This document shows positions 10,340 to 30,743 of a stretch of 64,000 nucleotides of DNA, one piece after another (within the stretch, counting starts at the first letter, position 1; each line of letters starts with the position of its first letter). The notes under the pieces were generated by a model that had not been told where the DNA came from, did no database searches, and saw nothing but the letters and a program-made list of their open reading frames with translations. This DNA is from an uncultured cyanobacterium. Lineage in GTDB: Bacteria > Cyanobacteriota > Cyanobacteriia > Cyanobacteriales > Cyanobacteriaceae. Where the stretch lies: assembly GCA_963749915.1 (NCBI GenBank), contig CAVVOP010000021.1, forward strand, positions 32,001 through 96,000, in the 5' to 3' direction. The position numbers and the translations under genes are program-made.

Positions 10340-11997
10340 TAGTAACTCATTGTTCGCTTATTTGAAAAAGTAAAAATTTGAAAAATAACTTCAAATGTTT
10401 AATAGATAAGGATTTTAGCCAAAAAAGTAGCAACGAAGTATAGAAGGTAGGGGAGATGATTTTTGTTAGCGATTTTGATACTATAACTTACTCTCAAAAA
10501 TAAAAATTATCAGACTTGGGCTACACCACAAAAATCAGTTAGTGTAATCAATACTATAATAAAAGGAGATTGATTGACTCAACATGAAGTTTTTTTGTGG
10601 GCAGGAGAAATGTATTGGGATTTTCCTCCAATTTAATTATTTTTCCCTTTTTTATTATTGTCTAAAATACGCTAATCATTAATAATTTTTCGGCGGTGGG
10701 ACGATTAGTACTGCGTTTAGGATTACCATCATAAAGACCTGCTAAACTTGATTGAGATTGATGTAATTCACGGCGAACTACAAATTCCATCAGGGTAAAC
10801 ACCCTCAAAGCAATGGTTAACAAAAACATCAATCCTCTAATTTTGTCTTCATCCCTGAAATAAATGGGTAAAGCGGATAAACGACCTTTTTTAAAGCGGT
10901 GAAACCCCTGTTCTGGTTGCCATTGTTCTTTGTAGGATTCTACTGCTTCTGTCAACGTTAATCTATCCTTCGAGGCATTTGTTACATATAAACGCCAACC
11001 TGCTAGTTTCTCCATTTCATTAATTTCTCCTTGACAACGTTGATAGCCGAGGGTCAAAGTAGTCTTGCGTACTCGGCGATAAGATGACGATTCAGAACGA
11101 TTTCCAAATCCTTGATACACCTTGTCATAACTCATCTTTTTTTCGATTGAATATTCCATGTATTTTGAGATCCGATTGCTTTTTAGTATCTCTTCTACTT
11201 TCCTACATAATACTTGCTCCTCATTTCCAGGTCGCTGTGCTAAGGTAGCTAAAGCTTTTTCCCCTTTGAGTAAACGACTGTGTAAACCCTTAATTTGACG
11301 AGATGCTAAGGCATTTGATTTTACTACTAACCATCTTTCTTCCCACTAATGGCATTCCACAGGGATCTAATGTACCCAACATTTGACGATATTGTTGTAA
11401 ATCTGGTCGTTTATCTTTACTGTAACCGAATTTTATCAAAGATGATTCTTGCTCTGTTTCTGATGTTTGATGATATACCGCAAAACTTGTAGTATCACTT
11501 CGGGCTTTTTGGGTTGGTAATTCATAAGCTTTGATTAAATGCTTCGATAGGGATGTTTCCATCGTAGGAATGCTTTGCTCACCACTAATTCCAATGGTTT
11601 TTAACAAGTCTCCGCAACGGTCATCTGTAGCATCTTTTTCGGCTATGTTCCATCCTGTTATGGCTGAAAGACTGTGATGATGGTCATTAACCCATTTTTC
11701 TAGACAACAAAGGCGATGGTCTGCTTCACTGATAATATACGTGAGTAATAATACAGCTAGTTGACCATAACTTAATCCTTTGCGATTACCATGAGGTGTC
11801 AATAAATTTTCATCGATGATTGCGGCAATATTCATTTGCGTTAGCCAATAGATAATTAATGGTAAATCATCTACTCGTTCTGACTGGATTTGTGGAATAA
11901 TCTTTTGACTCCATGTTGCTTAATGCTTTATCCAGTCCAGATTTTAACCTTTTTTTGTCAGTTATCTGATTTTATTTAAGCGAACGATGAGTTGCTA
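10340..11997 (-). mobile_element. Degenerate IS1634-family insertion sequence
   Basis: Terminal inverted repeats TAGTAACTCATTGTTCGCTTA (10340-10360) and reverse complement TAGCAACTCATCGTTCGCTTA (11977-11997), 2 mismatches; encloses transposase fragments. Confidence 0.8.
10662..11914 (-). pseudogene. IS1634-family transposase pseudogene (start out of frame, internal deletion)
   Basis: QSERVDDLPL, FGYSKDKRPDLQQ, GWRLYVTN and EQGFHRFK motifs; jumps from DPCGMPLV directly to WEERWLVV near 11345. Confidence 0.82.
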
Positions 11998-12146: not shown

Positions 12147-14246
12147 TCAAGTAGCTTGGGCGATCAATACGACACAGGAACGAGCTTCAACGGGATAGGT
12201 ATCCCCCGTATGGGGGGATATCTCGCCCAATTCACAGAATGCCTCCGGCAGAGACAGTGCCGTGTTCACCACGCGATGCCAGCGTTCTCCCTCACCCAAG
12301 AGAGGCAGTTCAAACTCCAGTTCCTCCCAATAGGCATTGAGCATGACGTGCAGGTATTCCTTGGACTGGGGATGGCGCAGGGAAAAGGCGAGGCTGCAGG
12401 ACTCATCACTCCAATCTGGCTGTCCTAACTTAACCCCGTGCCAGCTAAGGTGGGGTTTGCGACTGGCGTAGGAGACTTGGAGTCGAATTTCCTGGCGGAA
12501 TACTTCTAATCCTTGAATGAAATCAATCAGCCGCCGCAAGAAGCACCACAAATCGAACTGTGCGTCAATCTGATCCCAGTCCAACCAAGTCAATTCGTTG
12601 TCCTGGCAGTAGGCATTGTTATTGCCCTGCTGAGTGCGCCGCACCTCGTCTCCCATCAGGAGCATCGGCGTTCCCTGAGACAGAAAGAGGATGGTCAAGA
12701 AGTTCTTAATTTGCCGTAGCCGCAAAGCTTCTATTTCGGCATTGTCCGTCTCGCCCTCCTCGCCGCAATTCCAGCTAAAGTTGTCATTAGCCCCATCCCG
12801 ATTGTCCTCCCGATTAGCTTCGTTGTGCTTGCTGTTATAGGACACGAGATCGTTGAGGGTAAAACCGTCGTGACAGGTGATGAAGTTAATGCTGCGGTTG
12901 ATATCCGTATCCTGCCGCCGGTAGATATCGGGACTGCCTAAAATTCTCGCTGCCAGCGTCCTGACCATTCCTGCGTCCCCCTTGACAAAGCGGCGCACGT
13001 CATCCCGAAAGGGACCGTTCCACTCGGCGAACCAGTCGGCATGCTCCACGAACCCTCCCACTGCGTAGAGTCCCGCCGCATCCCAGGCTTCGGCGATCAG
13101 TTTCGTCCCCGCCAGAACAGCATCCGATTCTATCGCCCAGAGGATGCTAAATGTCCTCGCTCCTTGTCGGTGGGAAAAGGGTTGCCCTTGAGCGTCTCGG
13201 TCCAAGACAGCTGCCAAATCGAAGCGGAAGCCATCAACGTGCATTTCTGAGACCCAATAGCGCAGGGAATCTAAAATCAGGCGCCCACCAATAGGGTGAT
13301 TGCCTTTGAATGTATTACCGCAGCCACTGTAGTTGCTGTAAGCTGCCGGGTTGTCGGGTTCGAGAATGTAGTAAGTCGGGTTGTCCAGACCCCGAAACGA
13401 GAGGGTCGGCCCCTTTTCGTTCCCTTCTGCAGTGTGGTTGAAGACCACATCAAGGATGACTTCAATCCCCGCCCGATGCAGTGCCTTGACCAGATCTCGA
13501 AATTCGTTGAGGGGTCCTAGGGGGTCTTTATTGGAACTGTAATCCCGGTGGGGTGCAAAGAAGTTGGCGGTATTGTAGCCCCAGTAATTAATCAGCCCGT
13601 CCGGGGCTGATTCCGGGTCGAAATAGTGGACGGGGAGCAATTCAACGGCAGTAATCCCCAAATTTTTCAGGTAGGGAATTTTTTCCATCAGACCGGCAAA
13701 AGTCCCCCGCTTTTCGGGGGCGACTCCCGAATTGGAATGGCGGGTAAAGCCGCCGACGTGCATTTCGTAGATGACGCTGCTGGCGTAAGGGTGGTGCAAG
13801 GGGCGGTCTCCCTCCCAGTCGTAGGCACTCAGATCGACGACGATGCCACGCAAGGCTTGGGCACAGTTGTCTTTTCCTGGTTCCCGGGCGGCTTGGCGGT
13901 TGTAAATCGAGTAGCCGACGATCGCCTTTGCATAGGGATCGACAAGGACTTTACTAGGGTCGAAGCGTAGTCCTTTCTCTGGCAGTTCTGGCCCGTAGGC
14001 CCGGTAGGCGTAGACTTGCTCGGCCTGCGGCCCCTGAACAAAAACGTGCCAGTAATGGTAAGTGCGGTTCTGTTCAGGCGTAAGGCTAATGATCTGGGCT
14101 GGTTCGGGGTCGTTAGGTGCCGCAAACAGAAGCAGTTCGATTTTTTCGGCGTGTTGGGAAAAGAGCGAGAAGTTAATGCCATCGGAGAAGACAGTTGCAC
14201 CGGGGGGATAGCTCTGGCCAGGTAAAACGGGAAAATTAAAATTCAT
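12147..14246 (-). CDS. glgX: Glycogen debranching enzyme
   Basis: NYWGY, DVVFNHTAEG, DGFRFDLA, AEAWD and NFITCHDGFTL motifs; likely start MNFNFPVLPG at 14246. Confidence 0.95.
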   Translation of the reverse strand: MNFNFPVLPGQSYPPGATVFSDGINFSLFSQHAEKIELLLFAAPNDPEPAQIISLTPEQNRTYHYWHVFVQGPQAEQVYAYRAYGPELPEKGLRFDPSKVLVDPYAKAIVGYSIYNRQAAREPGKDNCAQALRGIVVDLSAYDWEGDRPLHHPYASSVIYEMHVGGFTRHSNSGVAPEKRGTFAGLMEKIPYLKNLGITAVELLPVHYFDPESAPDGLINYWGYNTANFFAPHRDYSSNKDPLGPLNEFRDLVKALHRAGIEVILDVVFNHTAEGNEKGPTLSFRGLDNPTYYILEPDNPAAYSNYSGCGNTFKGNHPIGGRLILDSLRYWVSEMHVDGFRFDLAAVLDRDAQGQPFSHRQGARTFSILWAIESDAVLAGTKLIAEAWDAAGLYAVGGFVEHADWFAEWNGPFRDDVRRFVKGDAGMVRTLAARILGSPDIYRRQDTDINRSINFITCHDGFTLNDLVSYNSKHNEANREDNRDGANDNFSWNCGEEGETDNAEIEALRLRQIKNFLTILFLSQGTPMLLMGDEVRRTQQGNNNAYCQDNELTWLDWDQIDAQFDLWCFLRRLIDFIQGLEVFRQEIRLQVSYASRKPHLSWHGVKLGQPDWSDESCSLAFSLRHPQSKEYLHVMLNAYWEELEFELPLLGEGERWHRVVNTALSLPEAFCELGEISPHTGDTYPVEARSCVVLIAQAT

Positions 14247-14322
14247 CTTGGGGATCTCATGATTGATTTTTGGTTGATCTAGGGGCAGGAGGCAGGAGAG
14301 GATCGTCAATAGTTAATTTAAA

Positions 14323-14361: not shown

Positions 14362-16521
14362 TCAGTTAAATGTCGATTTTTCCCGTTCCACCTGTGCCCT
14401 TTCCCAGAAGATTGTTTGTGCACTGCGTTCGGGTTCATCCTCTGCTGGATGACGCTGGACGTATTGACCGTCCGGCTGGAGTTCCCAAGCGTGGCGGTTG
14501 TCAGCTAGCAAGATATCCAGGATCTCTTTCAGTTTTGACTTGATCTCCGGATCAGCGATCGGGGTCACGGCTTCCACCCGCCGGTCTAAGTTGCGGGGCA
14601 TCCAGTCGGCACTGCCGATGAATGATTCTGTCTGTCCGCCATTATGGAAGTAGAAAATGCGGGAGTGTTCCAAGTAAGCACCAACGATGCTGATGACGCG
14701 GATATTTTCGCTAATTCCCTCTATTCCAGGACACAGGCAACAACTGCCACGGATAATCAGGTCGATCTGGACTCCGGCTTGGGAGGCTTCATATAAAGTA
14801 GCAATGAGTTGGGGATCGACTAGGGAATTCATTTTTGCGATGATGCGGGCATCATCGCCGGTTTTTGCCCGCTCGATTTCTCGATAGATAAGTTCTCCCA
14901 GGCGCCGCCGCAAGTTGAAAGGGGCAACTAACAGTTGCCGTAAGGTAGGCTGCTGGGCACAGCCAGTCAGGCAATTGAACAGTTCCGTCAGGTCAGCTCC
15001 CAATTCTTCCCGACAGCTCAACAGCCCCAAGTCCGTGTACAGCTTCGCTGTCTTGGGATTGTAGTTGCCCGTGCCGATGTGGACGTAGCGGCGCAGGTCG
15101 CTACCTTCCTGGCGCACCACCAGCACGGTCTTGGTGTGGGTCTTCAAGCCCAGCACCCCATAGACGACGTGGACTCCTGCCGCTTCCAACTGTTGCGCCC
15201 AGGTGATGTTGCTGGCTTCATCAAAGCGAGCCTTCAACTCGACGAGGGCAACTACCTGTTTCCTGTTGGCCGCCGCCTCCATCAAGGCTTGGACAATGGG
15301 AGAGTCCCCGGAGGTGCGGTAGAGGGTCATTTTCATCGCCAGCACTTGGGGGTCTACTGCTGCCTGGGTGATGAAGAGTTGGACTGAGTCGTCAAAAGAT
15401 TCGTAGGGATGGTGGACGAGTAAATCTCCTTGGCGGATGGCATAAAAGACAGTTCCCTCCTCTGGAATTTCCTGACTGTCCCTCTCTCTGGCTAGTGCCA
15501 AGACCGGCCGGAGGCGCGGGGGAACAACAGGTGTCCAGGGGTGATCTTTGAGAGCCGGCAAGGGCAAAGAGAGGAAGGACATCAAATCCCCCAAGTTCAG
15601 CAGTCCTGTCACTTCATAGACATCCGATTCTGAGAGTGCCAGCCCTCTGATTAAGGTCTCTTTCAGGAAGGGAGTGGCAGTGGCTTGCAATTCTAGCCGC
15701 ACAGCAAATCCCTGGAAGTGGCGCTTGCTGATTTCTTGCTGGATTGCCAGTAGCAGGTCGTCAGCGGCATCCTCCCGAACGGGAAAGTCGGCATCCCGCG
15801 TCACTCGAAAACAGCAGGATTCCTCAACCGCCATCCCCGGAAACAGAGAAGCTAGATTCTGGGCAATGACAGCTTCGATCGCAATTCCCTTCCAGACGAC
15901 TCCGGGTTCGCCCTTCTCAGGCAAGGGGATGAAACGGGACAGGATGTCCGGCACTTTGACTCGGGCGAAGTGCTTCTCCCCCGTCCTTGGGTTCTTGACC
16001 GCTACCGCCAGGTTCAAGCTCAGGTTTGCCATTGAAGGAAACGGGTGAGCGGGATCGACAGCTAGGGGGGTGAGGATGGGAAAGATGTGTTTCTGGAAGT
16101 GTTCTTGCAGGTAGCGTTCCTGTTCGGCATTTAAGTCAGCCCAGTCCAAAAGCCCCACGCCAACAGCAGCTAACTGGAGGCGAAGTTCTCCTTGGAAATG
16201 TTGGTGCTGCTGCACCACCAGGGGGCGGAGGCACTCCTCAATGGCAGTGAGTTGCTGCTGGGGGGTACGCCCATCGGGAGTCAATTGACTGACCTGAGCT
16301 TCCACCTGTTCCTTGAGGGTCGAGACCCGAATCATGAAAAACTCATCGAGGTTGGAACTGAAAATGGCGCTAAATTTCAACCGCTCTAGTAAGGGAGTGC
16401 GGGAGTCGAACGCCTCGTGCAGGACGCGGTAGTTAAACTCTAGCCAGTTCAGTTCCCGATTGAAGTAGTACTGCGAATCTCGCATATTTATTTGGGGGGG
16501 AGATTGTTTGATTTTAGCCAT
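14362..16521 (-). CDS. ppk1: Polyphosphate kinase 1
   Basis: YFNRELNWLEFN, ELKARFDE, KTHTK, HIGTGNYN, LEHSR and SADWMPRNLDRRVE motifs. Confidence 0.96.
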   Translation of the reverse strand: MAKIKQSPPQINMRDSQYYFNRELNWLEFNYRVLHEAFDSRTPLLERLKFSAIFSSNLDEFFMIRVSTLKEQVEAQVSQLTPDGRTPQQQLTAIEECLRPLVVQQHQHFQGELRLQLAAVGVGLLDWADLNAEQERYLQEHFQKHIFPILTPLAVDPAHPFPSMANLSLNLAVAVKNPRTGEKHFARVKVPDILSRFIPLPEKGEPGVVWKGIAIEAVIAQNLASLFPGMAVEESCCFRVTRDADFPVREDAADDLLLAIQQEISKRHFQGFAVRLELQATATPFLKETLIRGLALSESDVYEVTGLLNLGDLMSFLSLPLPALKDHPWTPVVPPRLRPVLALARERDSQEIPEEGTVFYAIRQGDLLVHHPYESFDDSVQLFITQAAVDPQVLAMKMTLYRTSGDSPIVQALMEAAANRKQVVALVELKARFDEASNITWAQQLEAAGVHVVYGVLGLKTHTKTVLVVRQEGSDLRRYVHIGTGNYNPKTAKLYTDLGLLSCREELGADLTELFNCLTGCAQQPTLRQLLVAPFNLRRRLGELIYREIERAKTGDDARIIAKMNSLVDPQLIATLYEASQAGVQIDLIIRGSCCLCPGIEGISENIRVISIVGAYLEHSRIFYFHNGGQTESFIGSADWMPRNLDRRVEAVTPIADPEIKSKLKEILDILLADNRHAWELQPDGQYVQRHPAEDEPERSAQTIFWERAQVEREKSTFN

Positions 16522-16615: not shown

Positions 16616-18532
16616 TTATGGGTTCGCTAATTTTCTAACCTCGCTTATAATCCCATCAGGATCGATCCCCTGGTGAGGATACTGCTCCCACAGCCCACCA
16701 CAACCTTCTCGGTAAGTTCCCAGGTAGGCGTACTTAGGCGTTAAACCCCGTTCCAATAACCAGGAACCGAAGCGGCTCCCCAATCCCGTGCGGCGGTTGA
16801 AGGCCTCCACCACCAAAACGAAGGGGGACTGACCGATTTTTTCTATCATTTCCTCATCTACTACATTCAAGGTGGGTTTATTGATTAACCCCACGTCAAT
16901 TCCCTCCTGCTTGAGCCGCTCCAATGCATCCAGGGCACGATAGAGGCTATCACCGAAGCTGACAATGTAGCCCGCCGTTCCCTCTCGGACAACTTCATCC
17001 TTGCCAGGAATAAAGGTGTAGCCCTCGCTGTAGAGGTCTTTGCCTGACTTATCGAGGAGGTTAGGAACTTTGGAACGAGTAGAAAAGATGAAGCGCAGTC
17101 CAGGATCGTTGAATACAGCTTCCACGCAGGCTTTCATCTGTCCTGCATCGGCTGGGAAGTAGAGACGAGTCTCGTAGCTGTCCTCTAGGCCGTTATCGGC
17201 AAACATATTATTCAAGCCGAAGTGGCAGGTATTGTCCGCCATGTCGTCAATGCCGGCGTGGGAGAAGTGGCAGAGGACATTGGAGAAGTTGAGCCGAGCC
17301 ATGGTGATTTCAGAGATGCACATCTCTAAAAAGGCACTGAAAGTCCCGAAAATGCCCTGCTTGCCCTTCTTCATCCCAAAGCCCGCCGCCGCCGAAAAGT
17401 TAGCCCGTTCCATGATCCCCCCACTGATGAAGATTTCGGGATAGGCTTGGCGAATTTGTTGCAGCCCACAGGAACCTTCTAAGTCGCTATCTACACACAA
17501 GACCTTTTCCTGGCGTTCAGCTACGCTCAGCGAACTGAGGATGGAGACGACAGTGTCACCGAAGACATTACGGTTCGATCCCATCCGGCTACCAGAACCG
17601 AGATAGGTGTAGGGATTCTTCAGCTTGGGAATCCCTTTGAGGTAGGAGACTGCCTTGTCATGTCCCCGCTTTTCTAGGTAGGCAACGGCTAGGTCGAGGG
17701 AAATCACGTCGTGTCCATAGGTCGAGCCTTCCAGCCCTTCAATGCCAATGCACATCTTGCGCCGATTGATGACGGCCACCGGCCCGTCTGTCGCGACCGC
17801 TTGGCAGAGGCGGCGGTAGAGGTTGTCTAGATCTTCCCCTTCTCCCGCCAAGGTCGCCAGTCCCTGTCCCCCTAGGGTGCGGCTGAGGTCGTAGCCCGGT
17901 TGGTATTGGGAGGGGTGGCCGGCAATGGTCACGTCATTGTCGTCGATGACCAACTTGACGTTGAGACGGTGGGCGACGGCGAAGCGTGCGGCTTCCGCAT
18001 CATCTCCTTCCTGCTGCGCCCCGTCGGAACCCAGACAGAAGACGATTTTGTCGGCATTGGCTTTGGCGACTCCATTGACGTAGGGCCAGAGGTGTCCCAG
18101 CCGTCCAGAACTGAACTCGATGCCAGGAGTTAGTCCCAGTTCCGGATGTCCCGGCAGTTTGGAATGAGCTTCCCGGTAGTGGAGGAGGGCTTCGACAGAC
18201 AAGTGACCCCGCAACACTGCCATCAGGTATTGAGTAGCTACCCGGTGCCCTGCTTCGTCGAAGAAGATGGGGACGAATTTGTCGGGTGCACCCCGGAAGA
18301 AGGCATCGAGTATCATCACTTCGGGGACGGTGTCGTAGGGGCCTCCCGTGTGTCCGCCGACCCCTCTAGCGGCACCAGTGGCGGTAAAGAAGACGATCGC
18401 GTCCCGGCACAGTTGGATGTTGCTTTTGAGGGCCTCCTTCTGCTGTTGGGTCAATGCGGGCTGCACGGGGTCTAAGGCCAGGGGCTGATAGGTACTTAAG
18501 TCGAGTGGAAAAGTAGTTGTTGTTACAGTCAT
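16616..18532 (-). CDS. Atypical transketolase-like ThDP-dependent enzyme
   Basis: GGHTGG, DEAGH, LPGHPE, SGRLGH and GSDGAQQEG...DDN ThDP motif; probable start MTVTTTT at 18532 (638 aa). Confidence 0.8.
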   Translation of the reverse strand: MTVTTTTFPLDLSTYQPLALDPVQPALTQQQKEALKSNIQLCRDAIVFFTATGAARGVGGHTGGPYDTVPEVMILDAFFRGAPDKFVPIFFDEAGHRVATQYLMAVLRGHLSVEALLHYREAHSKLPGHPELGLTPGIEFSSGRLGHLWPYVNGVAKANADKIVFCLGSDGAQQEGDDAEAARFAVAHRLNVKLVIDDNDVTIAGHPSQYQPGYDLSRTLGGQGLATLAGEGEDLDNLYRRLCQAVATDGPVAVINRRKMCIGIEGLEGSTYGHDVISLDLAVAYLEKRGHDKAVSYLKGIPKLKNPYTYLGSGSRMGSNRNVFGDTVVSILSSLSVAERQEKVLCVDSDLEGSCGLQQIRQAYPEIFISGGIMERANFSAAAGFGMKKGKQGIFGTFSAFLEMCISEITMARLNFSNVLCHFSHAGIDDMADNTCHFGLNNMFADNGLEDSYETRLYFPADAGQMKACVEAVFNDPGLRFIFSTRSKVPNLLDKSGKDLYSEGYTFIPGKDEVVREGTAGYIVSFGDSLYRALDALERLKQEGIDVGLINKPTLNVVDEEMIEKIGQSPFVLVVEAFNRRTGLGSRFGSWLLERGLTPKYAYLGTYREGCGGLWEQYPHQGIDPDGIISEVRKLANP

Positions 18533-18539
18533 TTCAATT

Positions 18540-19979
18540 TTAGATTTTAGATTTTGGATTGCAGATCGTATGAATCTTGAGGAAGTTGGTGCCACCGGAT
18601 TTGCCCATCGGCACACCTCCCATCACCAGAACCTTGTCACCGGTCGCCGCAAAATTTCGTTGGATTAAATCCGCTTCGATTTTGGGCAGCAAGTCCTCCA
18701 AAGTTTCTTTGGGAAATTGCATCAAGACCGGTCTGACTCCCCAGTTCAAGCTAAGACGGCGGTAAACTTTCGGGTCAGGAGTGTAGGCGACAATGGGTAC
18801 TTGCGGACGCTCTTGGGAGGCGAGGTTAGCCGTGTAACCGGTTTCGGTAAAGGCGACAATGCACTGGAGATCTATCGTGTCATCGATCGCATGGAGTGCC
18901 TCACTAATAGCATCCGCATCGTCAATGCGGTTGGGTGGATAGTTGACAAACTGGGTGGCTGGCTCCACTTCGGTGGCAATGCGAGCCAGCATTTTAACCG
19001 ATTCCAATGGGTAATCGCCCACAGCAGATTCGCCAGAGAGCATGACTGCATCAGTGCCATCTATAATCGCGTTGGCAACGTCACTGGCTTCTGCACGGGT
19101 AGGACGGGGATTATGGATCATGCTGTCCAGCATTTGGGTGGCCGTGATCACCGGGATGCCTTTTTGATTGCACAGTTTGATGATCTGCTTTTGAATCAAC
19201 GGCACCTTTTCGGGACTCATTTCCACCCCTAGGTCACCCCGGGCCACCATGATGGCATCGCATTCATCGACGATCTCCTCTAGGTTAGCGATCGCCTGGG
19301 GTTTCTCCAGCTTTGCCAGTACGGGAATGTTCGCCCCTTTTTCCTTCAGCAACGCCTTCAGAGTTTGAATGTCCTCCGGTTTGCGAACGAAACTAAGGGA
19401 AATGAGATCAACCCCTTGCTCAATACCAAAATCTAGGTCACGCTTGTCCTTCTCGGTCATGGAAGGCAGGCGTAGATTTAACGTGGGGAAGTTGACCCCT
19501 TTGTGACTTTTGAGCAAGCCACCTTCGACGACTTGGCATTGAACTGCATTGCCATCGATTTTCCCTACCCGCAGTTCCAGCAGACCATCATCCAAGAGTA
19601 CCTGGGTTCCAGGTTCGGCTTCTTCTGCCATGTAGGGATAGTCGATGCCAACGGTATTGGGTTGTCCCGTGTAATCGGCGATCGGCAGCAGTGTCAGGGA
19701 TGTGTCTTCCTCAAGCATCACCCCCTCGGCAGGCAGATCCCCCACTCGGATTTTTGGTCCCTGCAAGTCTTGCAGCAACATTAACGGTAAATCCAATTCT
19801 TCAGAGGCGGATCGCAACCGTTTGATCCGTTCTGCGTGATCCTCATAGTTGCCGTGGGAAAAGTTCAGCCGAGCCACGTTCATTCCTGCCAGCAGCATCT
19901 TCCGCATCATATCGGGAGAATCGCTAGCAGGTCCGATCGTCGCTACAATCTTTGTACGGTGGATCAATAATGGTTTCAT
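18540..19979 (-). CDS. pyk: Pyruvate kinase
   Basis: [38 protein letters not shown] and MLSGESAVG motifs. Confidence 0.97.
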
Positions 19980-20428
19980 AGTAAGCCTTCCTTTTTAGCC
20001 ATATACAGCATCAGATCGATAACCCTGAAAGAGTAGCTCCATTCGTTGTCATACCAAGACACCACTTTGAAGAAGTTGGAATTTAAACCAATTCCCGCTA
20101 GAGCATCAAAGATACTAGAACGGGGGTCGGTACGAAAATCCATGGAAACGATCGCGTCTTTTGCCGGATCGAATTCCTGATGATTCACTCCTACCACAAA
20201 AGTCCGCACTTTATCTGGGTCTTTAGTCGGAGCCGAAATCACAACTCGTTTTGCCCCGGCTGCCCGGTGATTTTCGGCTCCCTCATAGGTAGTAAACAGT
20301 CCAGTAGATTCGACGACATAATCAGCTCCCAGTTTGCCCCAAGGCAGTTCAGCTGGATTTCTGATCGCCAGACAGGGAACAAAATGCCCATTGATTTCAA
20401 TTCCATTAATACCGATTTTGAGTGTCAT
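19976..20428 (-). pseudogene. gap: GAPDH (gap1-type) with two in-frame internal deletions, 150 aa
   Basis: KIGING joins directly to IEINGH (FGRIGR lost); AIVS joins MDFRTD (NASCTTNC catalytic motif lost); retains VVESTGLF and SWYDNEW. Confidence 0.9.
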
Positions 20429-20486: not shown

Positions 20487-20499
20487 CACAAAGACCTTA

Positions 20500-23025
20500 C
20501 TAGAAAGTGAGCTTCACATCGCCATTGGCTTGACTGTATTCTGGCACTTCTACTTTTACGGGTAAAGCTTTCCAGATGTTCTGGAGATAGTCCCGAATTG
20601 AACGATCACTGGAGAATTTGCCCATCCGCGCCACATTCAAGATCGACATCCGCGTCCAGTGGTCTTGATCTTGGTATGCCTGACTCACCCGATCCTGGCA
20701 TTCCACATAGGACTGGTAATCGGCAAACAGCAGGTAATCATCGTGATAGAGCAGAGAATCTAGTAAGGGCTTGAACAGGTTGGGGTCGCCGTGGGAGAAG
20801 AACCCAGAGGAAAGGCGATCGATCACCAGTTTCAGTTCTGGGTTGCCGTTGTAGTAATCCCAGGGATTGTAGCCTGCCGCTTTCTTGGCAAGGACTTCTT
20901 CCGTCGTCAAACCAAACAGGAAGAAATTATCGGCTCCTACTGCATCCCGAATTTCAATATTTGCACCATCAAGAGTGCCGATCGTCAACGCCCCATTCAT
21001 GGAGAACTTCATATTGCCTGTACCAGAGGCTTCTTTCCCCGCCGTAGAAATCTGCTCCGAGAGATCGGCAGCGGGATAGACGCGCTGGGCAAACTTGACG
21101 TTGTAATCCTTCAGGAATACCACTTTGAGCCGACCCCGCACATCTGGGTCATTATTGACCACATCGGCGATCGAATTGATCAACTTGATGATCAGCTTCG
21201 CCATGTAGTAACCAGGAGCCGCTTTACCGCCAAAGAGGAAGGTGCGCGGCGTAACATCTAGGTCGGGATTTGCCTTGATCCGGTTATACAGGGTGATGAT
21301 GTAGAGGGCATTCAGGTGTTGTCGTTTGTACTCATGAATGCGTTTCGCCTGAATGTCAAACAGCGAGTCGGGGTCAATTTCAATGTGGTAGTTTGCCCGA
21401 ATATAATCTGTCAGGTCTTGTTTCACCTCTTGTTTCACCTGGCGGAACTCGTTGCGGAAGTTCGCATCATGAATGAAGTTCTCCAGTTTTCGCAGTTCAT
21501 CCAGATTTTTGATCCAGCTATCTCCAATTTTGCTTGTAATCAGGTTTGCCAGTCGGGGGTTGCTCAAGACCATGAAACGGCGAGGAGTAACGCCATTGGT
21601 AACGTTGGTGAACTTCCCTGGATACATCTCGTAGAAGTCGTGCAGGGTCGTCTTCTTCAACAAATCACTGTGGAGTTCGGCAACTCCGTTGACGGCGTAA
21701 CTGCCCACACAGGCGAGGTTTGCCATGCGCACATAGCGATCGCCGCTTTCATCAATGATGGAGATCCGGCCAAGGCGATCGCCATCATCAGGAAACTTGA
21801 TGCGGACTTCATCTAGGAAACGTCCATTAATTTCATAAATAATTTCCAGATGCCGGGGCAACAAACTGCCAAACATACCTAGGGGCCAGCGTTCTAGGGC
21901 CTCTGGTAACAGGGTGTGGTTGGTGTAGGCAAAGGTATTGGTGGTGATGTTCCAGGCCTTGTCCCATTCAAACCCATAGTCATCGAGTAAAAGCCGCATC
22001 AGTTCAGCCACGGCAATGGTGGGATGGGTGTCATTTAACTGAATCCCATAGTGTTCGTGGAATCGTTCCAGAGCCAGATTCTGCATCTTCATTATGCGAA
22101 TCATGTCCTGCAAAGAACAAGAAACAAAGAAGTACTGTTGCTCCAGCCGCAGTTGTTTTCCCTGGTAGGACTCATCATTGGGGTAAAGAACTTTGGTGAT
22201 GTTTTCGCAGGTACTCTTTTCGTGAACGGCTCCGAAATAATCACCTTGGTTAAATGCCTCAAAATCAAAGGACTCTGGTGCTTCCGCTTTCCACAGTCGC
22301 AGGGTGTTGGCGGTATTGGTCTGGAAACCCAGGATCGGGGTGTCGTAGGGAACTCCTTTCACCACCTTATAGGGAACCCAACGACTGCGATAGCGACCAT
22401 GCTCATCAGTGTAAGTTTCAGTATGACCACCAAACTTCACCTCTAATTCTGCCTCTGGACGGGCAACTTCCCAGGGATTGCCATAACGCAACCACTTGTC
22501 TGTGATTTCGACCTGCCAACCGTCTTTGATTTCCTGGTCGAAAATGCCGTATTCGTAGCGGATACCATAACCGATCGCCGGGATTTCCAGGGTTGCCAGA
22601 GAGTCTATGTAGCAGGCGGCTAAGCGGCCTAAACCACCATTGCCTAATCCAGGTTCTTCTTCCTGTTCCAATAGAGTGGTCAGGTTCAGCCCCAATTCCT
22701 CAATGGCTTGTTTGACCACATCGTAGATTCCTAGGTTGATCAAGTTATTGCCCAAGTGAGGACCCATCAAAAACTCGGCAGACAGGTAAGCAACCATCCG
22801 GGGTGCCTTTTCCAAGTAGGTCTGGGTAGTATTCAGCCAGCGATTTAACAGGCGATCGCGCACGGTAAATGCCAGTGCCATGTAGTAGTCGTTCTTGGTC
22901 GATATCTTGGGAAACTTTGCCTGAATGTATAACAGATTGTCCAAAAATGCCCGCTTCAGGGTTTCGACATCAATCCCTGTGCGATCGTCTTCAATTTGAA
23001 TATTATTAGGAACGGTACTGACCAT
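20500..23025 (-). CDS. glgP: Glycogen phosphorylase
   Basis: GLGNGGLGRLAAC, QLNDTHP, KRIHEYKRQ and EASGTGNMK motifs. Confidence 0.97.
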   Translation of the reverse strand: MVSTVPNNIQIEDDRTGIDVETLKRAFLDNLLYIQAKFPKISTKNDYYMALAFTVRDRLLNRWLNTTQTYLEKAPRMVAYLSAEFLMGPHLGNNLINLGIYDVVKQAIEELGLNLTTLLEQEEEPGLGNGGLGRLAACYIDSLATLEIPAIGYGIRYEYGIFDQEIKDGWQVEITDKWLRYGNPWEVARPEAELEVKFGGHTETYTDEHGRYRSRWVPYKVVKGVPYDTPILGFQTNTANTLRLWKAEAPESFDFEAFNQGDYFGAVHEKSTCENITKVLYPNDESYQGKQLRLEQQYFFVSCSLQDMIRIMKMQNLALERFHEHYGIQLNDTHPTIAVAELMRLLLDDYGFEWDKAWNITTNTFAYTNHTLLPEALERWPLGMFGSLLPRHLEIIYEINGRFLDEVRIKFPDDGDRLGRISIIDESGDRYVRMANLACVGSYAVNGVAELHSDLLKKTTLHDFYEMYPGKFTNVTNGVTPRRFMVLSNPRLANLITSKIGDSWIKNLDELRKLENFIHDANFRNEFRQVKQEVKQDLTDYIRANYHIEIDPDSLFDIQAKRIHEYKRQHLNALYIITLYNRIKANPDLDVTPRTFLFGGKAAPGYYMAKLIIKLINSIADVVNNDPDVRGRLKVVFLKDYNVKFAQRVYPAADLSEQISTAGKEASGTGNMKFSMNGALTIGTLDGANIEIRDAVGADNFFLFGLTTEEVLAKKAAGYNPWDYYNGNPELKLVIDRLSSGFFSHGDPNLFKPLLDSLLYHDDYLLFADYQSYVECQDRVSQAYQDQDHWTRMSILNVARMGKFSSDRSIRDYLQNIWKALPVKVEVPEYSQANGDVKLTF

Positions 23026-23028
23026 AAT

Positions 23029-23078
23029 TGAGTATTCTCCTGTTGGTTATTAATGAGTATTCTCCTGTTGGTTATTAA
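23029..23078. repeat. Perfect 25-bp tandem duplication containing the glgP RBS
   Basis: TGAGTATTCTCCTGTTGGTTATTAA x2 (AGGAG on the minus strand). Confidence 0.9.
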
Positions 23079-23107
23079 ATAGATGGTTAGGGGAACTTTT
23101 AACTTCT

Positions 23108-23160
23108 GTAAGGGCTGAACATTGTTCAGCCCCTACTTCTGACTTCTGACTTCTGACTTC
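23108..23160 (-). repeat. GTAG-type REP-like palindrome plus AGAAGTC heptamer repeats at the ldhA 3' end
   Basis: Minus strand GTAGGGGCTGAACAATGTTCAGCCCTTAC, preceded by (AGAAGTC)n; supplies the ldhA stop codon. Confidence 0.7.
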
Positions 23161-24157
23161 CGCTATAAGCCACCTCATTTTTCAAAGGCTGACCTCGCTC
23201 AAAATCGGTAATATTGGAGAGAGTGGTGTCGGCGATCGCCGCTAGGGCATTGCGGGTAAAAAATCCTTGGTGGGAGGTGATCACCACATTGGGAAAGGAT
23301 TGCAGTAGTTGAAAGGTGTCATCCTGAATAATATTGTCAGAGTGATCTTCAAAGAAGAGATCGTCTTCCCGCTCGTACACATCAATGCCGAGGTAGCCAA
23401 TTTTGCCCGACTTAATCCCCTCGATCACCGCACCTGTATCAATCAAACCACCCCGACTGGTGTTAATGAGCATAACACCCGACTTCATTTGCTCAATAGT
23501 CTTCCCATTGATTAAATGATGAGTTTCGGGTAACAAAGGACAATGGAGCGAGATGAGATCCGAGTTAGCTAAGAGTTCTGGCAGTGGAACATAATGAGCA
23601 TTGCCAATCTCCGCAAACTGAGGGTTAGGGTAGGCATCGTAGCCGAGCAAGGAAGTACCAAACCCCTGCATGATTCGGGCGAACACCATGCCAATTTTGC
23701 CCGTACCGATGATGCCTACCGTACAGCCATAGAGATCAAATCCCAACAGACCTTCCAGGGAGAAGTTATCATCCCGAACACGGTTGTAGGCTTTGTACAT
23801 TTTGCGGTTCAGGGTCAGCACCAAGGCAACGGCGTGTTCAGCAACGGCGTAGGGAGAATAGGCAGGCACCCGCACCACTTTGATCCCTAACTCCGCTGCC
23901 CGTTTCAAATCGACGGTGTTGAACCCAGCAGACCGCAGTGCCAGCAGACGAGTTCCCCGGGAGGCGAGAATATCCAGTGTTGCCGCATCCGCAATATCGT
24001 TGACAAACATACACACCGCTGGAAACTCCGTTGCCAGTAAGGCGGTGTTGGGGTTTAGTTGTACGTCAAAAAACGTCAGTTCGTGACGATAGTTGGCATT
24101 CGCCCCTTCAAAGGACTGGCGATCGTAGGTTTTGGTGCTAAAAAAAGCGACTTTCAT
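23126..24157 (-). CDS. ldhA: D-lactate dehydrogenase (2-hydroxyacid dehydrogenase)
   Basis: MKVAFFS, RVPAYSPYAVAEH, GTGKIG, INTSRG, DVYERE and TSHQGFFT motifs; RBS GGAG before 24157. Confidence 0.9.
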   Translation of the reverse strand: MKVAFFSTKTYDRQSFEGANANYRHELTFFDVQLNPNTALLATEFPAVCMFVNDIADAATLDILASRGTRLLALRSAGFNTVDLKRAAELGIKVVRVPAYSPYAVAEHAVALVLTLNRKMYKAYNRVRDDNFSLEGLLGFDLYGCTVGIIGTGKIGMVFARIMQGFGTSLLGYDAYPNPQFAEIGNAHYVPLPELLANSDLISLHCPLLPETHHLINGKTIEQMKSGVMLINTSRGGLIDTGAVIEGIKSGKIGYLGIDVYEREDDLFFEDHSDNIIQDDTFQLLQSFPNVVITSHQGFFTRNALAAIADTTLSNITDFERGQPLKNEVAYSGSQKSEVRSRG

Positions 24158-24183
24158 AACGTAAGCTCCCAATGGACATAATG

Positions 24184-25767
24184 TTACTGAGTAGAAACCA
24201 AGAGGTTGGAGGGCTTGCCGCGATCGCCTTGCAAGTTGATGCCCCGCCGATTCGCTGCCAGATGACGCAGGATTTTGTAAACAGTTTCAATCTGGTCGGC
24301 TGCTCCCGCTTTTTCTGCCAGTGCGCTTAATTTCATTGGTTCAGAACCACTCTTGAGGATTGCTAGAACCCGTCGCTGTAAATCCAAAACCGAGGCAGCT
24401 GCTTTTTTCCCTGCTTCCACCCCTGGTTGGTGATAGGCGTTAACATTCACCAGAGAAGCATATAGCCCCACTGCCCGTTCATAGAGTGCGATCAAAGCTC
24501 CCACAGTGCGAGGATTGACCTGGGGAATGGTGACGGTGATGGAGTCCCGATGATTCTCATACAGTGCCTGTCGTGTTCCCTGCAAAAAGCCGGAGAGAAA
24601 ATCCCCAGAAGTCGCTTCCGGCTCTACTTCGATCGATGCTCCCTCCCGGTCTTCCAGCACCTCAATAAACGTGGCAAAGAAGTTGGGAATCCCTTCCCTC
24701 AGTTGTTGCACGTAGGCGTGCTGGTCAGTGGAGCCTTTATTCCCGTAAACCGCAATTCCTTGATGCACTGTGTTACCATCGAGATCCTTTTCCTTACCAA
24801 TGGACTCCATCACCAACTGTTGCAGGTAGCGAGAGAATAACAACAAACTGTCTTTGTAGGGTAGCATCACCATATCTTTTTCGCCTTTGCCATTCCCCCC
24901 CGCATACCAAGCAAGGGCTAACAGGGCTGCTGGATTATTTTTGATATCAGGCTCACGGGTTACCTCATCCATTTCCTTCGCACCGGCTAAGAGCGATCGG
25001 ATGTCAATGCCTAGCAGGGACGCTGACAACAGCCCTACCGCAGACATTTCTGAGGTGCGTCCTCCCACCCAATCGTACATGGGAAACTCGGCTAACCAGC
25101 CTTCCATTCGCTCCAGTTCGTCCATTTTGCTACCTAGGACGGTTATGGCAACCGCGTGGGAGGGAAAATCTAAGCCCTGTTGTTCGTAGGCGTGCTTCAC
25201 TTCCAGCATTCCATTGCGGGTTTCGGGGGTGCCACCAGATTTGCTGGCAATGATGATCAGAGTACTTTTGAGACGATCTTTAAGGCGGTTAAGCACACGA
25301 TCGATCCCGGCAGGATCGGTGTTGTCGATGAAATGAATCCCCATGGTGGGAAAATCGGGAGCTAGTGCCTCGGCGACAAACTCTGGTCCTAGGGCAGAAC
25401 CACCAATGCCGATGGAGAGAATATCGGTGAATTTTGTCGCTGACGGTGGGTGAATTGTCCCGTCGTGAACCTTTTGGGTAAAGGCTTCAATTTGTTCCAA
25501 GGTTTCCACGATTTCTTTTTTGAGCTGTACTGGAGCGAGGTCAGGGTCACGCAACCAGTAATGCCCCACCATGCGGTTTTCGTCGGGGTTGGCGATCGCA
25601 CCTGCCTCTAGTGCCTCCATGTTCTTAAACGCCTTGGTAAACTTCGGCTTCAGGGTCTTAACCAGTTCGTCGTCAAACCGTATTCGGCTTATGTCCAGAT
25701 ACAAGTCCAAGCCTTCGTAGTAGTAGAGCCATTTTTCATAGCGTTGCCAGAGTTTCTTGGTATTCAT
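24184..25767 (-). CDS. pgi: Glucose-6-phosphate isomerase
   Basis: [25 protein letters not shown] and [10 protein letters not shown] motifs. Confidence 0.97.
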
Positions 25768-25849
25768 ACAAACCTCGTTAATTCGCAGTAAGTGTGCAAA
25801 AGGAAAAATTGATTCAATCTAAACTTGAATTTTTTATCCACCAGCAGAT

Positions 25850-26015
25850 CTGACTTTTCACGGGATCTTTTTCTGCTCTCAGGCGATCGCCAAATTCCCC
25901 CTCTCCAAGCCAGACTCTTTCGTTGTCCATTATCATTAAGCAGAGATTATTGAGAATCAGCCTGGGAGGGAAACCCTTATTTGAACGGGTTTTCAGAAAT
26001 GCCGTGAAAAGTCAG
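25850..26015. mobile_element. 166-bp MITE with a 14-bp perfect TIR and a 10-bp TSD
   Basis: TIR CTGACTTTTCACGG / CCGTGAAAAGTCAG; flanking direct repeat ACCAGCAGAT at 25840-25849 and 26016-26025. Confidence 0.93.
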
Positions 26016-26094
26016 ACCAGCAGATAAGGGGGCGATTGGGGGAAGGAATCATAGATTCAACGGGGGAACAATCTTGTGTGTTCTAGAATTTGAA

Positions 26095-26559
26095 TTACTG
26101 AAACCCGATGTGGGAGATCGCCCCTAGATATTCGTAGTAGCTGATCTCTCCATCACCATCGCGATCAACTTGTTTCATAATGGTTTTGATTTGCTCGGTA
26201 TTGAGAGGTAAGACCAAGCGATCGGTAATGTTAATCACCTCCTCAAGGGATAGCAGTCCATTCTGGTCGAGGTCTAGTTCGCGGAACTTTTTGAGAATGC
26301 CGAATATTGGTTCAGCTACAACCATAAATTCTTCAAAATCAACGTATCCGTCCTTGTCAGCATCTACAGCTTCAAACTTCTTTGTCAGACGTATCTTCTC
26401 CTTTGCCAGGGCGAAGTTGAGATATTCGTCGATCTCGATTGTGCCGTCTTGGTTTGAGTCAAGTTGCGTAAACATCTGGACGATGGAGGCCAACTTTTCC
26501 TCTGGGATTAGTGCCTTAACCTCTTCTGATATTTCAAATTTTAATTTGTCGTCATTCAT
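26095..26559 (-). CDS. Calmodulin-like protein with four EF-hands
   Basis: Loops DSNQDGTIEIDE, DADKDGYVDFEE, DLDQNGLLSLEE and DRDGDGEISYYE; 154 aa; no signal peptide. Confidence 0.9.
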   Translation of the reverse strand: MNDDKLKFEISEEVKALIPEEKLASIVQMFTQLDSNQDGTIEIDEYLNFALAKEKIRLTKKFEAVDADKDGYVDFEEFMVVAEPIFGILKKFRELDLDQNGLLSLEEVINITDRLVLPLNTEQIKTIMKQVDRDGDGEISYYEYLGAISHIGFQ

Positions 26560-26629
26560 CAGTTAATCTCTCAATCTCATTTGTTAGGATGGTTGTTTGT
26601 TACTTTTTCAGGTTTTACGGTAAGCAGAG

Positions 26630-28048
<1,419 letters not shown>

Positions 28049-28087
28049 TCATCGGCGACCCTGATTAAATTCCTAAGCCCGACCTGG

Positions 28088-28291
28088 ACCTGAGTGAACT
28101 GTAAGAAAGCTTTAAAAATAAGGGTTTAAGAGTGATAACTGACCAAATTTTCTCTCCCAAAAAGAATTAAGTTTAGTAAATAATTGCTTAAAATCAATTT
28201 TGATACATTTTACATCGATTATAAACACTACTCCCTGCTCGCCTGCTCCCTACTCCCTACCCTAACAAGTAACTTTATATCGAACTCAGGT
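28088..28291. mobile_element. AT-rich 204-bp MITE-like insertion upstream of eno
   Basis: Ends ACCTGAGT... and ...TTATATCGAACTCAGGT; 7-bp near-TSD GACCTGG/GACCTAG; internal CTACTCC heptamers. Confidence 0.7.
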
Positions 28292-28392
28292 GACCTAGGG
28301 ATCTAGATTTTGAAGTAAGACAAACACTACCCTGTCATAAAAACTCCTCATCCGACATTATAAGACTCGATTATTAAGGACTTATAATCATT

Positions 28393-28411
28393 GAGTCAAG
28401 AAAAGGTTAAG
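28393..28411 (-). promoter_or_regulatory. Possible OmpR/SphR-type (pho-box-like) direct repeat upstream of the island operon
   Basis: Minus strand CTTAACCT-TTT-CTTGACTC; TATAAT on the minus strand at 28357-28362. Confidence 0.35.
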
Positions 28412-28450
28412 AAGCTGAAATTTGCCGAAAATTTCTCTATCTCTCTTCAT

Positions 28451-28776: not shown

Positions 28777-29492
28777 ACGTGATGTGCAACTAAAATTAAG
28801 CTGACACTAAAGTTTCAAACTGTAAGATATTTTCATTCTCACGATTGAGCCAGCAACAAACAGTATGTGCTAAAAGTTTGCGGTTTATTCTACTTGTTAA
28901 ATGCCACATATCCCTTGCCCAAATTTTTTCCAGATTAAATCGCTCAACTAATTGTCCAATTACTGTCTCTATCAAACGACGTACTTTCATCAACATTTTT
29001 ACCCACGACTGAGGACGAGTATCTTTCATATTGTTTCGCAATGCTGTTTCCAATTCAATGCCATTACGAATAAGTTCTTCCCCTAATTGCTCACTTATAT
29101 ACCCTTTATCACCAATGAGTAAACCTTTTATTCCTTTGACTAAATCCCATAATGCCTCACGTTCATCACCATTAGCTGGAGTCAAAGTTAGACCTGTGAT
29201 GATTCCCTGACCACTAATAATTAAATGTCCATGAAAACCATAATAGGTCTCCTTTTTACCAGCACAATAGCCATAATTGGCTTCACTCACAAAACTACGA
29301 CATCTTGGAGCTCTACTAAAACAACACAACGGAATGGGAATACCATCAATTATATGAAGATGATCTTGAAAACCATTCATTTGGCCAGCTAACTTTTGAA
29401 GTAATCTCAATTGTGTTTTATTGCCATCTACTAATGCTACCCATTTTTTTTCTTTCCCAATGTCACGGGAGATTGCTTCAGCAAACATTTCT
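28777..29492 (-). mobile_element. Truncated IS982-family element whose transposase is fused to an ISKra4-like fragment
   Basis: End ACGTGATGTGCAACTAA at 28777; IIDGIPIPLC, YYGFHGHL, GDKGY and RRLIETVIGQL (IS982); N-terminal 34 aa AISRD..KKWVALVDGNKTQL resemble ISKra4. Confidence 0.75.
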
Positions 29493-30743
29493 GGTTCTGT
29501 CGCAAAAAATCTCAGCCGTCATATAGCATGATAAACTTGAGTAATAATACTCAGGAGTTCCATCTTCTTTATGAATCCCAAAGAACCTTTCAAATGGCGT
29601 CATTTCCAACAAGAGATTATTTGTAAGCGTTCAGGGGGGAACGAAAATATGGTAGTTTAGAGACATGGAAAAAGAGCAACTACTAAAAACGAATTTTTTC
29701 ACCACAGAAGAATGGAATTCGACTCCTCAAGGAGTTAAAAATTTTGTAGTGCAACAAAAATTAAGAATTCAAGAACTGGAAAATGAACAACAAGAATTAA
29801 AGAAGATAGTAGAAAATCTGCAAGAAAAAGTTAATTGTAACTCGAAAAATTCGGGTATTCCACCATCGAGTGAAATAGTTAAACCAGAGAAGAAAAAGGC
29901 GAAGAAAAGAAAGAAAAGAAATAGAGGTGGGCAAATTGGGCATCACGGTTATAGTCGAGAATTATATCCAGAATCCCAATGTCAAAGTACCAAAAACCAC
30001 TTACCAGAAACCTGTAAATGTTGTGGGGAAAAACTTTCAGGTACAGACTCCAATCCCTATCGACACCAAGTAGTGGAAATACCACCGACAGAACTAGAAA
30101 TAGTAGAACATAGGTTACACCAATTGGAATGTAATCATTGTGGAGCAAAAACGAGAGCAAAATTACCTGAAAATGTCTCAGAGAATGGCTATGGTTCAAC
30201 AGTAGTAGCCTTAGTGTCTTTGATGAGTGGGGTATATCGTCATTCTCACCGTATGATTGTGAGTGGGATGTCAGACTTTTTTGGGGTGAAAATGTCATTA
30301 GGAATGGTAAATCGCCTCAGAAATGAAGCCAGTGTAGCGTTGTCATCAGCTGTAGAATCAGCAAAAACTTATATTCAATCATTTGATGGCACAAGAGAAA
30401 AAGTTGTTCAGGTTGTGGCGAAGAGTCAGAGATGGAACTTTAAGTAGAAAGGAATTTCAATTGTTAGTATCACCAATTAGGAGTCGTGTTCAAGAACTAT
30501 TGACAGAAACAGCCGCATTTGAGATTGGTTCAAGGGAAAAAACTCCTTGGGCGAAAACGGTGCGTACTTGCCGACAATTGTTGAAAAGTGTTTTAGAGTT
30601 TATCAAGGACAAGTAGAAGGAGTCAATAAGAAGGATGTAATCGGACAAAAAAACTTCGTTGAGTCTCTCTTTGGGATTGCTGTCTAAAAAATCAGATGTT
30701 TACAGGAGTATTATCTTTGTCTAAACTTTTTTGCGACAGAACC
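29493..30743 (+). mobile_element. IS6-family shell interrupted by IS66
   Basis: Perfect 17-bp IR GGTTCTGTCGCAAAAAA (29493-29509, 30727-30743); retains tnp start MNPKEPFKWRHFQQEII (29571) and end GQVEGVNKKDVIGQKNFVESLFGIAV* (30687). Confidence 0.85.
29623..30600 (+). mobile_element. IS66-family remnant with an internally deleted transposase
   Basis: Begins GTAAGCGTTCAGGGGGG; NSKNSGIPPS, RGGQIGHHG, CKCCG and RHQVVEIP motifs; jumps near 30380 to the C-terminal LFRLWRRVRDG frame; no right end seen. Confidence 0.85.

Follow-up and report, generated by a model that had tools for sequence, protein, structure and literature searches.

A cluster of genes for glycogen breakdown and fermentation in an uncultured cyanobacterium of the family Cyanobacteriaceae contains a gene for a small protein with four EF-hands, and homologs of this gene lie among the same kinds of enzyme genes in distant thin filamentous cyanobacteria. 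The cluster is found in a window of 64,000 nucleotides (assembly GCA_963749915.1, contig CAVVOP010000021.1, positions 32,001 to 96,000); we refer to it as the island, and to the protein and its gene, at 26095..26559 on the minus strand, as the EF protein and the EF gene. What appears to be new is an EF-hand family with an N-terminal half that is atypical in structural models and with a conserved place in a mobile glycogen-fermentation island. The best reading of these results, for which the case is circumstantial and which we favor tentatively, is that the EF protein serves as a Ca2+ sensor or adaptor for the enzymes of the island.

The gene call rests on the open reading frame (stop codon 26095-26097), on Pfam matches, on homologs, and on the ratio of nonsynonymous to synonymous substitution rates (dN/dS). 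The product, 154 residues and 17.7 kDa, has a pI of 4.4, with 33 Asp plus Glu against 17 Lys plus Arg; it has four Met, no Cys and no Trp. Pfam model EF-hand_1 matches four stretches (E 2.3e-24, 83.5 bits against a cut-off of 25.4), and EF-hand_7, which describes the domain pair, matches two. A loop of the EF-hand superfamily runs to 12 residues, of which 1, 3, 5 and 12 are ligands and 6 is Gly, and every loop in the EF protein has Asp at 1, Asp or Asn at 3 and 5, Gly at 6 and Glu at 12. Loop 1 is DSNQDGTIEIDE (residues 34-45, 26425..26460), loop 2 is DADKDGYVDFEE (residues 66-77, 26329..26364), loop 3, within the canonical C-lobe pair, is DLDQNGLLSLEE (residues 96-107, 26239..26274), and loop 4 is DRDGDGEISYYE (residues 132-143, 26131..26166), all on the minus strand. 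Counted over 97 full-length family members, each of the first three loops is canonical in 92, and loop 4 in 89. A near-invariant C-terminal tail, YLGAI.HIGFQ, comes after loop 4. The N-terminus, judged by eye rather than by a predictor, is acidic and has no hydrophobic stretch. The initial annotation, made from the DNA letters alone, had described just such a protein, with 154 residues, four canonical 12-residue loops and no signal peptide, encoded between eno and pgi on the same strand, and these points hold: the gene for enolase (eno, 26630..27931) and that for glucose-6-phosphate isomerase (pgi, 24184..25767) flank the EF gene, and all three are on the minus strand.

A search of 5.8 billion proteins listed 101 matches. 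One hundred of these make up the family, at 55-95% identity to the EF protein and nearly all exactly 154 residues long; the other is a plant kinase (E 9e-5). Named records come from Pseudanabaena, Leptolyngbya, Kovacikia, Elainella, Egbenema, Leptothermofonsia and Pantanalinema, all thin filamentous cyanobacteria. The EF gene is a real gene under purifying selection, with dN/dS between 0.04 and 0.24 in 10 of 10 ortholog comparisons. Many C-lobe positions that are not ligands are at least 95% conserved, as are the final residues Gly-Phe-Gln of the tail (...YYEYLGAI.HIGFQ), and a Glu-Pro between the lobes (Glu83-Pro84) is invariant. The protein in the window shows all of the family's marks, namely its length, four loops, inter-lobe Glu-Pro and C-terminal tail; it is the query of the family alignment, A1, and so carries all invariant columns. 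The gene is single-copy in its genome, and the family occurs in five of 401 sampled genomes of the phylum, with the genome of the window counted; it was not found in the two same-genus or four other same-family genomes sampled. From these records it appears to be a rare, uncharacterized family confined to thin filamentous cyanobacteria. The protein had been put forward as undescribed, and a search limited to one library of papers likewise found no description of the family or its genomic context, nor any paper that connects a four-EF-hand protein to glycogen or phosphoketolase genes of cyanobacteria.

Structural modeling distinguishes the two halves of the protein. In an AlphaFold2 model built with the family alignment (pLDDT 84, pTM 0.48), the C-lobe (residues 83-154) is modeled as a textbook EF-hand pair that matches lobes of centrin and calmodulin with Z of 10-11.6 and rmsd of about 2 Å over 70-74 residues. 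In the N-terminal half, loop 2 starts 32 residues after loop 1, as against the usual 36; the residues between the two loops include no helix breaker and are modeled as a single helix, 43-65, with no beta bridge. A separate model of residues 1-84 (pLDDT 88.7) has the same continuous helix and no compact pair. All models of the EF protein were built without Ca2+. As modeled, therefore, the N-terminal half would be an extended, unpaired EF-hand pair, and the "two pairs" of loops in the initial annotation stand for the C-terminal pair, a canonical EF-hand domain, and not for loops 1 and 2. No chain among 48,161 matched the N-terminal model at Z of at least 5. The top match, at Z 4.8, was the polcalcin Phl p 7 (1k9u_A), a weak one, with 61 residues aligned at 25% identity and an rmsd of 6.6 Å; both have two EF-hands in an open, extended arrangement, and Phl p 7 crystallized as a domain-swapped dimer. 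Modeling of two copies of the EF protein with alignment A1 gave a median score of 0.39, against a mark of 0.42 and controls at 0.00.

These features bear on the resemblance to calmodulin; the initial annotation had called the protein calmodulin-sized. Calmodulin has four EF-hands in about 148 residues, a size similar to that of the EF protein, and the family profile matches calmodulin chains at E of about 1e-15 to 1e-16, although values near 1e-15 are typical of generic EF-hand kinship. The closest Atlas clusters outside the EF protein's own are eukaryotic EF-hand and calmodulin-like proteins. Foldseek, however, gives an identity of about 27% and a global TM-score of about 0.33; in the hidden Markov model (HMM) alignment, the linker between EF-hands 1 and 2 is four residues shorter than in calmodulin, and the linker between the lobes is seven residues shorter and contains the invariant Glu-Pro; and the models show no compact N-terminal lobe, whereas calmodulin has two compact lobes on a long, flexible central helix. 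Calmodulin grips amphipathic helices of its targets through Met-rich patches when Ca2+ is bound; it has about nine Met, and the EF protein four. The EF protein is also bacterial and is tied to a metabolic island. Calmodulin in the strict sense was rejected on identity, linker lengths, N-lobe and TM-score: the EF protein is calmodulin-sized and calmodulin-related, yet differently built.

By sequence and fold, calmodulin-like proteins are the closest known relatives; in biology, the closest is CSE (Asr1131). Its descriptions (10.1101/571836; PMC13578307) present CSE as a small cytosolic protein of filamentous cyanobacteria, 8.5 kDa with two EF-hands, found mostly in heterocystous species, linked to photosynthesis, nitrogen metabolism and septal junctions, and proposed to make Ca2+-dependent protein contacts. 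Both are small EF-hand proteins of filamentous cyanobacteria, but that description sets the EF protein apart, since it has four EF-hands and 17.7 kDa and is encoded among glycogen-catabolic genes in thin, non-heterocystous lineages; identity with CSE was accordingly rejected. Other bacterial EF-hand proteins, calerythrin, CabA-D of Streptomyces and EfhP of Pseudomonas, are proposed Ca2+ buffers or sensors (PMC13578307). None of them is among the 100 homologs or in the nearest Atlas clusters, and the literature found reports no glycogen-catabolic gene context for them. No NCBIfam model reaches its cut-off for the EF protein; XopAW, a type III Ca-binding effector (NF041410), was rejected at 50.8 bits against 120.

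A weak match to the NCBIfam model for lanmodulin, LanM (NF053806; 40.1 bits, E 3.4e-10), raises the question of whether the loops might bind a lanthanide or Mn, in the manner of lanmodulin, rather than Ca2+. We consider this very improbable. The score is far below the cut-off of 135, on which LanM itself was rejected, and the loops fit the Ca2+ consensus. Proline at loop position 2 is the hallmark of lanmodulin, and none of the four loops has it.

Linkage of homologs to glycolytic genes had been set beforehand as the test by which the proposed role could be refuted, and such linkage was found at 14 of 20 genome loci and 10 of 14 metagenome loci. At 13 of the genome loci, tblastn places eno, pgi, ldh, glgP or pyk beside the EF gene, and at the fourteenth (L008) xfp, which encodes phosphoketolase, is directly upstream. 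Two of the metagenome loci are unlinked and two are on contigs too short to judge (L042, 1.6 kb; L047, 2.1 kb); the metagenome count leaves out a weak fragment, L050, with 41% identity over 39 residues. The generalized order of the island is xfp-pgm-eno-EF-(aldDH)-pgi-ldh-glgP-gap-pyk, where aldDH denotes an aldehyde dehydrogenase gene. Orders seen around the EF gene include eno-EF-pgi, eno-EF-aldDH-pgi, xfp-EF-glgP (L014), xfp-EF-orf-ldh-glgP (L010), EF-ldh-glgP with a divergent pyk (L020 and L048), and EF-gpm-tal-eno-pgi (L019). Pfam assigns xfp to the islands of L004, L010, L011, L014 and L015, in addition to L008, while L006 and L016 have open reading frames (ORFs) of xfp size that lay outside the Pfam analysis; it also identifies pgm in L004 and L012, an L-lactate dehydrogenase in L012, the aldehyde dehydrogenase between the EF gene and pgi in L003, L004 and L012, gpm in L006 and L019, and a transaldolase with EF-hands in L019. 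The most frequent neighbor is enolase, while GlgP and Xfp are kept in most of the rearranged orders. Synonymous divergence (dS) from the EF gene to loci outside Pseudanabaena (L006, L009-L012, L014) is 1.2-4.8. Because dS exceeds 1 outside Pseudanabaena and gene orders vary, the linkage has outlived long divergence and repeated rearrangement and is not merely a matter of recent common descent.

The same neighborhoods could be explained if the EF gene were a passenger, encoding a general Ca2+-binding or signaling protein with no role particular to glycogen catabolism, its place in the island reflecting only that the genes of a mobile block descend together. When an island is rearranged, however, its passengers tend to drop out or disperse. 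The EF gene has kept xfp, ldh or glgP as a neighbor in five or more gene orders at saturated dS, always on the strand of the enzymes and with short spacers in most loci, and we find this explanation quite unlikely. It does have several observations in its favor. The island is accessory and mobile, has insertion sequence (IS) fragments on both sides, and was not found in most of the close relatives sampled; the family itself is sporadic, missing from all six same-genus or same-family genomes and from most genomes with island-type enolase, and the EF gene also occurs alone in unrelated contexts. A tree of 21 family members mixes linked with unlinked copies and shows no clean split; it is weak, with good support for just 1 of its 18 inner branches.

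The unrelated contexts also weigh against a sensor or adaptor, as do a number of other findings. At six of the 20 genome loci (L005, L007, L013, L017, L018, L021) the EF gene is found near a toxin-antitoxin pair, a K+ channel, TrkA, ZnuABC, CHASE2 or IF-2, and in three genomes of the phylum sample (G122, G352, G312) no island gene lies within about 10 kb of it; neighbors in G352 and G122 include a helicase, XendoU and other unrelated genes. The unrelated contexts of the six loci, G352 and G122 are judged from annotated neighbors. In all, linkage is not shown for 13 family loci: 11 have no island gene in view, and the other two are those on short contigs. No single enzyme is a constant neighbor. 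Island-type enolase, taken as at least 72% identity, occurs in 11 other sampled genomes, and eight of these lack the EF family; in two of the three that have it (G312 and G352, the third being G280), enolase and the EF gene are on different contigs. The genome of the window has paralogous clusters on contigs C22 and C5, both without a four-EF-hand gene. The EF protein is thus optional for the island. Since the island moves as a unit, moreover, part of the linkage reflects inheritance rather than selection.

That the island is accessory and horizontally mobile is evident from its distribution. A search with the DNA of 12000-31000 in five relatives, both sampled genomes of the same genus and three of the four others of the same family, did not find it and gave only scattered matches of 63-68% identity. 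Its enzymes are 72-92% identical to those of carriers in other orders, compared with 56-80% to the genome's own paralogs. The genome has five copies of glgP, four of pgi, three of eno, two of ppk1 and four matches to pyk, three of them at 44% identity or more. The C22 cluster is intact, with the order gpm-pgi-transaldolase(EF-hand)-glgP and a transketolase-like gene further on. The C5 cluster (L052, C5:172500-187500) is a decayed third copy of the island: eno is cut to 260 residues, xfp is broken up into ORFs of 390, 217 and 217 residues, gpm and tal are truncated, and pgi encodes 470 residues. The C5 copies of gap, pyk, ldh and glgP look intact and partly complement the broken gap of the window.

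Four sediment RNA libraries contain a relative, about 94% identical, that carries glgP-ldh-pgi-EF-eno in colinear order. A single contig of about 7.5 kb spans these five genes in libraries X1 and X2, and shorter contigs bridge pgi-EF-eno in X3 and X5. In the relative, 38 nucleotides stand in place of the 318 at 25769-26086 of the window, and the joint 25768/26087 is found in 4 of 4 libraries. A small repeat with inverted ends makes up the core of the 318-nucleotide stretch, about 25847-26016, and has other copies on contigs C25 (99.4%) and C8 (87%). Given the relative that lacks the stretch and the genomic copies of its core, we conclude that a small repeat was inserted between the EF gene and pgi in this strain; the tight spacing of the relative is probably the older state. 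Two further points belong with those that count against a sensor or adaptor: the insertion parts the EF gene from pgi in this strain, and contigs from RNA libraries do not prove that the island genes are transcribed, or that they share a single transcript, as the word operon in the initial annotation would imply.

On the proposal that we tentatively favor, the EF protein, which is acidic, would work in the cytosol and bind Ca2+ at four functional EF-hands. The island would supply a pathway for dark or anoxic fermentation of glycogen, with glycogen breakdown (GlgP, GlgX, Pgm, Pgi), a phosphoketolase branch (Xfp, and Tal or a Tkt-like enzyme), lower glycolysis (Gap, Gpm, Eno, Pyk) and formation of lactate (Ldh). 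Homolactic, heterolactic and mixed-acid fermentation of glycogen by cyanobacteria is documented (PMC4261827). Binding of Ca2+ to the four loops would bring about a conformational change, after which the conserved C-lobe and invariant tail (...YYEYLGAI.HIGFQ) would engage at least one of the island enzymes, and flux would be tuned as cytosolic Ca2+ changes, for example at shifts from light to dark or from oxic to anoxic conditions. We infer each of these steps, from Ca2+ binding and conformational change to the role as sensor, the identity of the target and the physiological trigger. A sensor or adaptor is favored because of the conserved non-ligand surface and tail, and because linkage persists through rearrangement.

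Enzymes linked to the EF gene were compared with unlinked copies for signatures of their own. The linked GlgP copies show no indel or specific insertion and only five scattered diagnostic columns, with the start-codon column set aside; the linked GlgP thus carries no target signature, another point on the negative side. In linked Pgi, diagnostic residues are clustered at 465-518, in a comparison with only three unlinked paralogs, which is too few. The linked enolase is a separate lineage and hence uninformative.

The lack of a target signature and of a constant neighbor enzyme would fit a protein that has no specific partner and acts as a Ca2+ buffer, taking up free Ca2+ whenever the island is active. 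Ca2+ inhibits the Mg2+-dependent enzymes enolase, pyruvate kinase and phosphoglucomutase, and a buffer would shield them, with the Ca2+ coming, for example, from release by polyphosphate or from acidification during fermentation. Four canonical loops in a very acidic protein suit such a role, as does the presence of ppk1, for polyphosphate kinase 1, within the island of the window; a paper on CSE (PMC13578307) names EfhP among EF-hand proteins that serve as buffers. A buffer, however, needs neither an invariant C-terminal tail, nor a fixed length of 154 residues, nor a non-ligand C-lobe surface conserved at 95% or more. Moreover, ppk1 occurs in the fetched stretch of only three of the 20 genome loci (L011, L014 and L016), and only in L016 is it downstream on the strand of the EF gene. 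On balance, we rate buffering as fairly unlikely.

A second association of EF-hands with sugar catabolism bears on the sensor or adaptor proposal. In the C22 cluster (L051, C22:144500-160500), the transaldolase encoded between pgi and glgP (ORF 3482-4675) ends in a C-terminal EF-hand pair, and the same fusion is present in 120 of the 120 best homologs listed, from many cyanobacterial genera. Like the EF gene, this fusion couples EF-hand modules to sugar-phosphate catabolism, and it does so in the same genome and in a cluster of a similar kind; the differences are that the EF-hands are fused to the enzyme and that there are only two loops, very closely spaced. Similarity to the free EF protein is generic to EF-hands (BLASTP E 0.004). 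A search limited to one library of papers found none on the fusion. That EF-hand modules are tied to cyanobacterial sugar-phosphate catabolism in two separate ways hints at a Ca2+ link and provides an independent clue to it.

Taken jointly, these observations allow a bolder proposal, possible but doubtful, of a prokaryotic counterpart to Ca2+-controlled glycogenolysis. The free sensor would bind GlgP, phosphoketolase or enolase directly and in a Ca2+-dependent manner, in an assembly that may form via the open N-terminal half, and a horizontally traded module leading from glycogen to lactate or acetate would be switched on and off by spikes of cytosolic Ca2+ at light-to-dark or oxic-to-anoxic transitions. 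An analogy with phosphorylase kinase, and a part for polyphosphate, may be inferred on the same lines.

The remaining genes of the island in the window, all on the minus strand, follow the EF gene and pgi. Island-type eno is 56% identical to the housekeeping eno of the genome, and the 70-nucleotide spacer between it and the EF gene (26560..26629, same strand) has a purine-rich GAGAG about 9 nucleotides ahead of the ATG; no terminator-like site was found in it. From the EF stop to the pgi start there are 327 nucleotides (25768..26094), and these hold the repeat insertion. A scan of 23000-28800 for promoters and terminators found 9 promoter-like and 6 terminator-like sites, no excess over the 7.8 and 6.5 of shuffled sequences. 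After pgi come a D-2-hydroxyacid dehydrogenase of D-lactate type (23126..24172), named at family level only, as it scores below NCBIfam cut-offs, glycogen phosphorylase (glgP, 20500..23025, one of the five copies), and a gap remnant of 150 residues (19976..20428). Next are pyruvate kinase (pyk, 18540..19979), a transketolase-like protein (16616..18616, below the NCBIfam transketolase cut-offs), the second genome copy of ppk1 (14362..16521) and glycogen debranching enzyme GlgX (12147..14309, above the cut-off of TIGR02100). The gap remnant has two in-frame internal deletions, each between short repeated motifs. Measured against the full-length island gap genes of L004 and L036 and the copy on C5, about 55 residues are missing from its NAD-binding N-terminus and about 135 from its center, the catalytic Cys motif among the latter; its stop overlaps the pyk start.

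Transposase fragments and ORFs bracket the island, which spans 16 kb. On one flank are two IS1634-type transposase fragments (10662..11835, minus strand), with near-identical copies on contigs C10 and C8 and more distant ones on C9 and C32. On the other flank (28796..30447) are a DDE transposase (28796-29488, minus strand) and an IS66-like ORF (29665-30447, plus strand). Between eno and this transposase, the segment 28088-28291 recurs dozens of times, at 70-90% identity, in two same-genus genomes, and is probably a genus-wide dispersed repeat.

Two islands elsewhere contain additional genes. In Leptothermofonsia sp. ETS-13 (L011), the ORF after the EF gene (10452-14282, from our own ORF finder) overlaps the EF stop and encodes a 1276-residue fusion of PBP_like_2, which is phosphate-binding-protein-like, to glycogen phosphorylase; a protein with PBP_like_2 and DUF4912 and a second island-type glgP follow. 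In one Pseudanabaena island (L004), a P-type cation ATPase (Cation_ATPase_N plus Cation_ATPase_C, 240-2987) is encoded just upstream of xfp; it is of P2 type, possibly a Ca2+ pump, and none of the other loci showed it.

Shifts from light to dark are known to set off Ca2+ transients in cyanobacteria, and to our knowledge few of their targets have been identified. In Nostoc, according to a 2026 paper (PMC13578307), only CSE and CcbP have been analyzed. An EF gene in a glycogen-fermentation cluster offers a concrete and testable link from Ca2+ to dark or anoxic carbon catabolism. Should the protein prove to do no more than buffer Ca2+, or its gene to be a passenger, what remains is an annotated EF-hand protein in an interesting island. 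That island is a portable pathway, with phosphoketolase branch, lower glycolysis and lactate formation, common to distant thin filamentous cyanobacteria, and it bears on how cyanobacteria of mats and sediments survive anoxic nights. If the joint proposal is true, then it and the widespread EF-hand tail of transaldolase would together place sugar catabolism in cyanobacteria under the general control of Ca2+.

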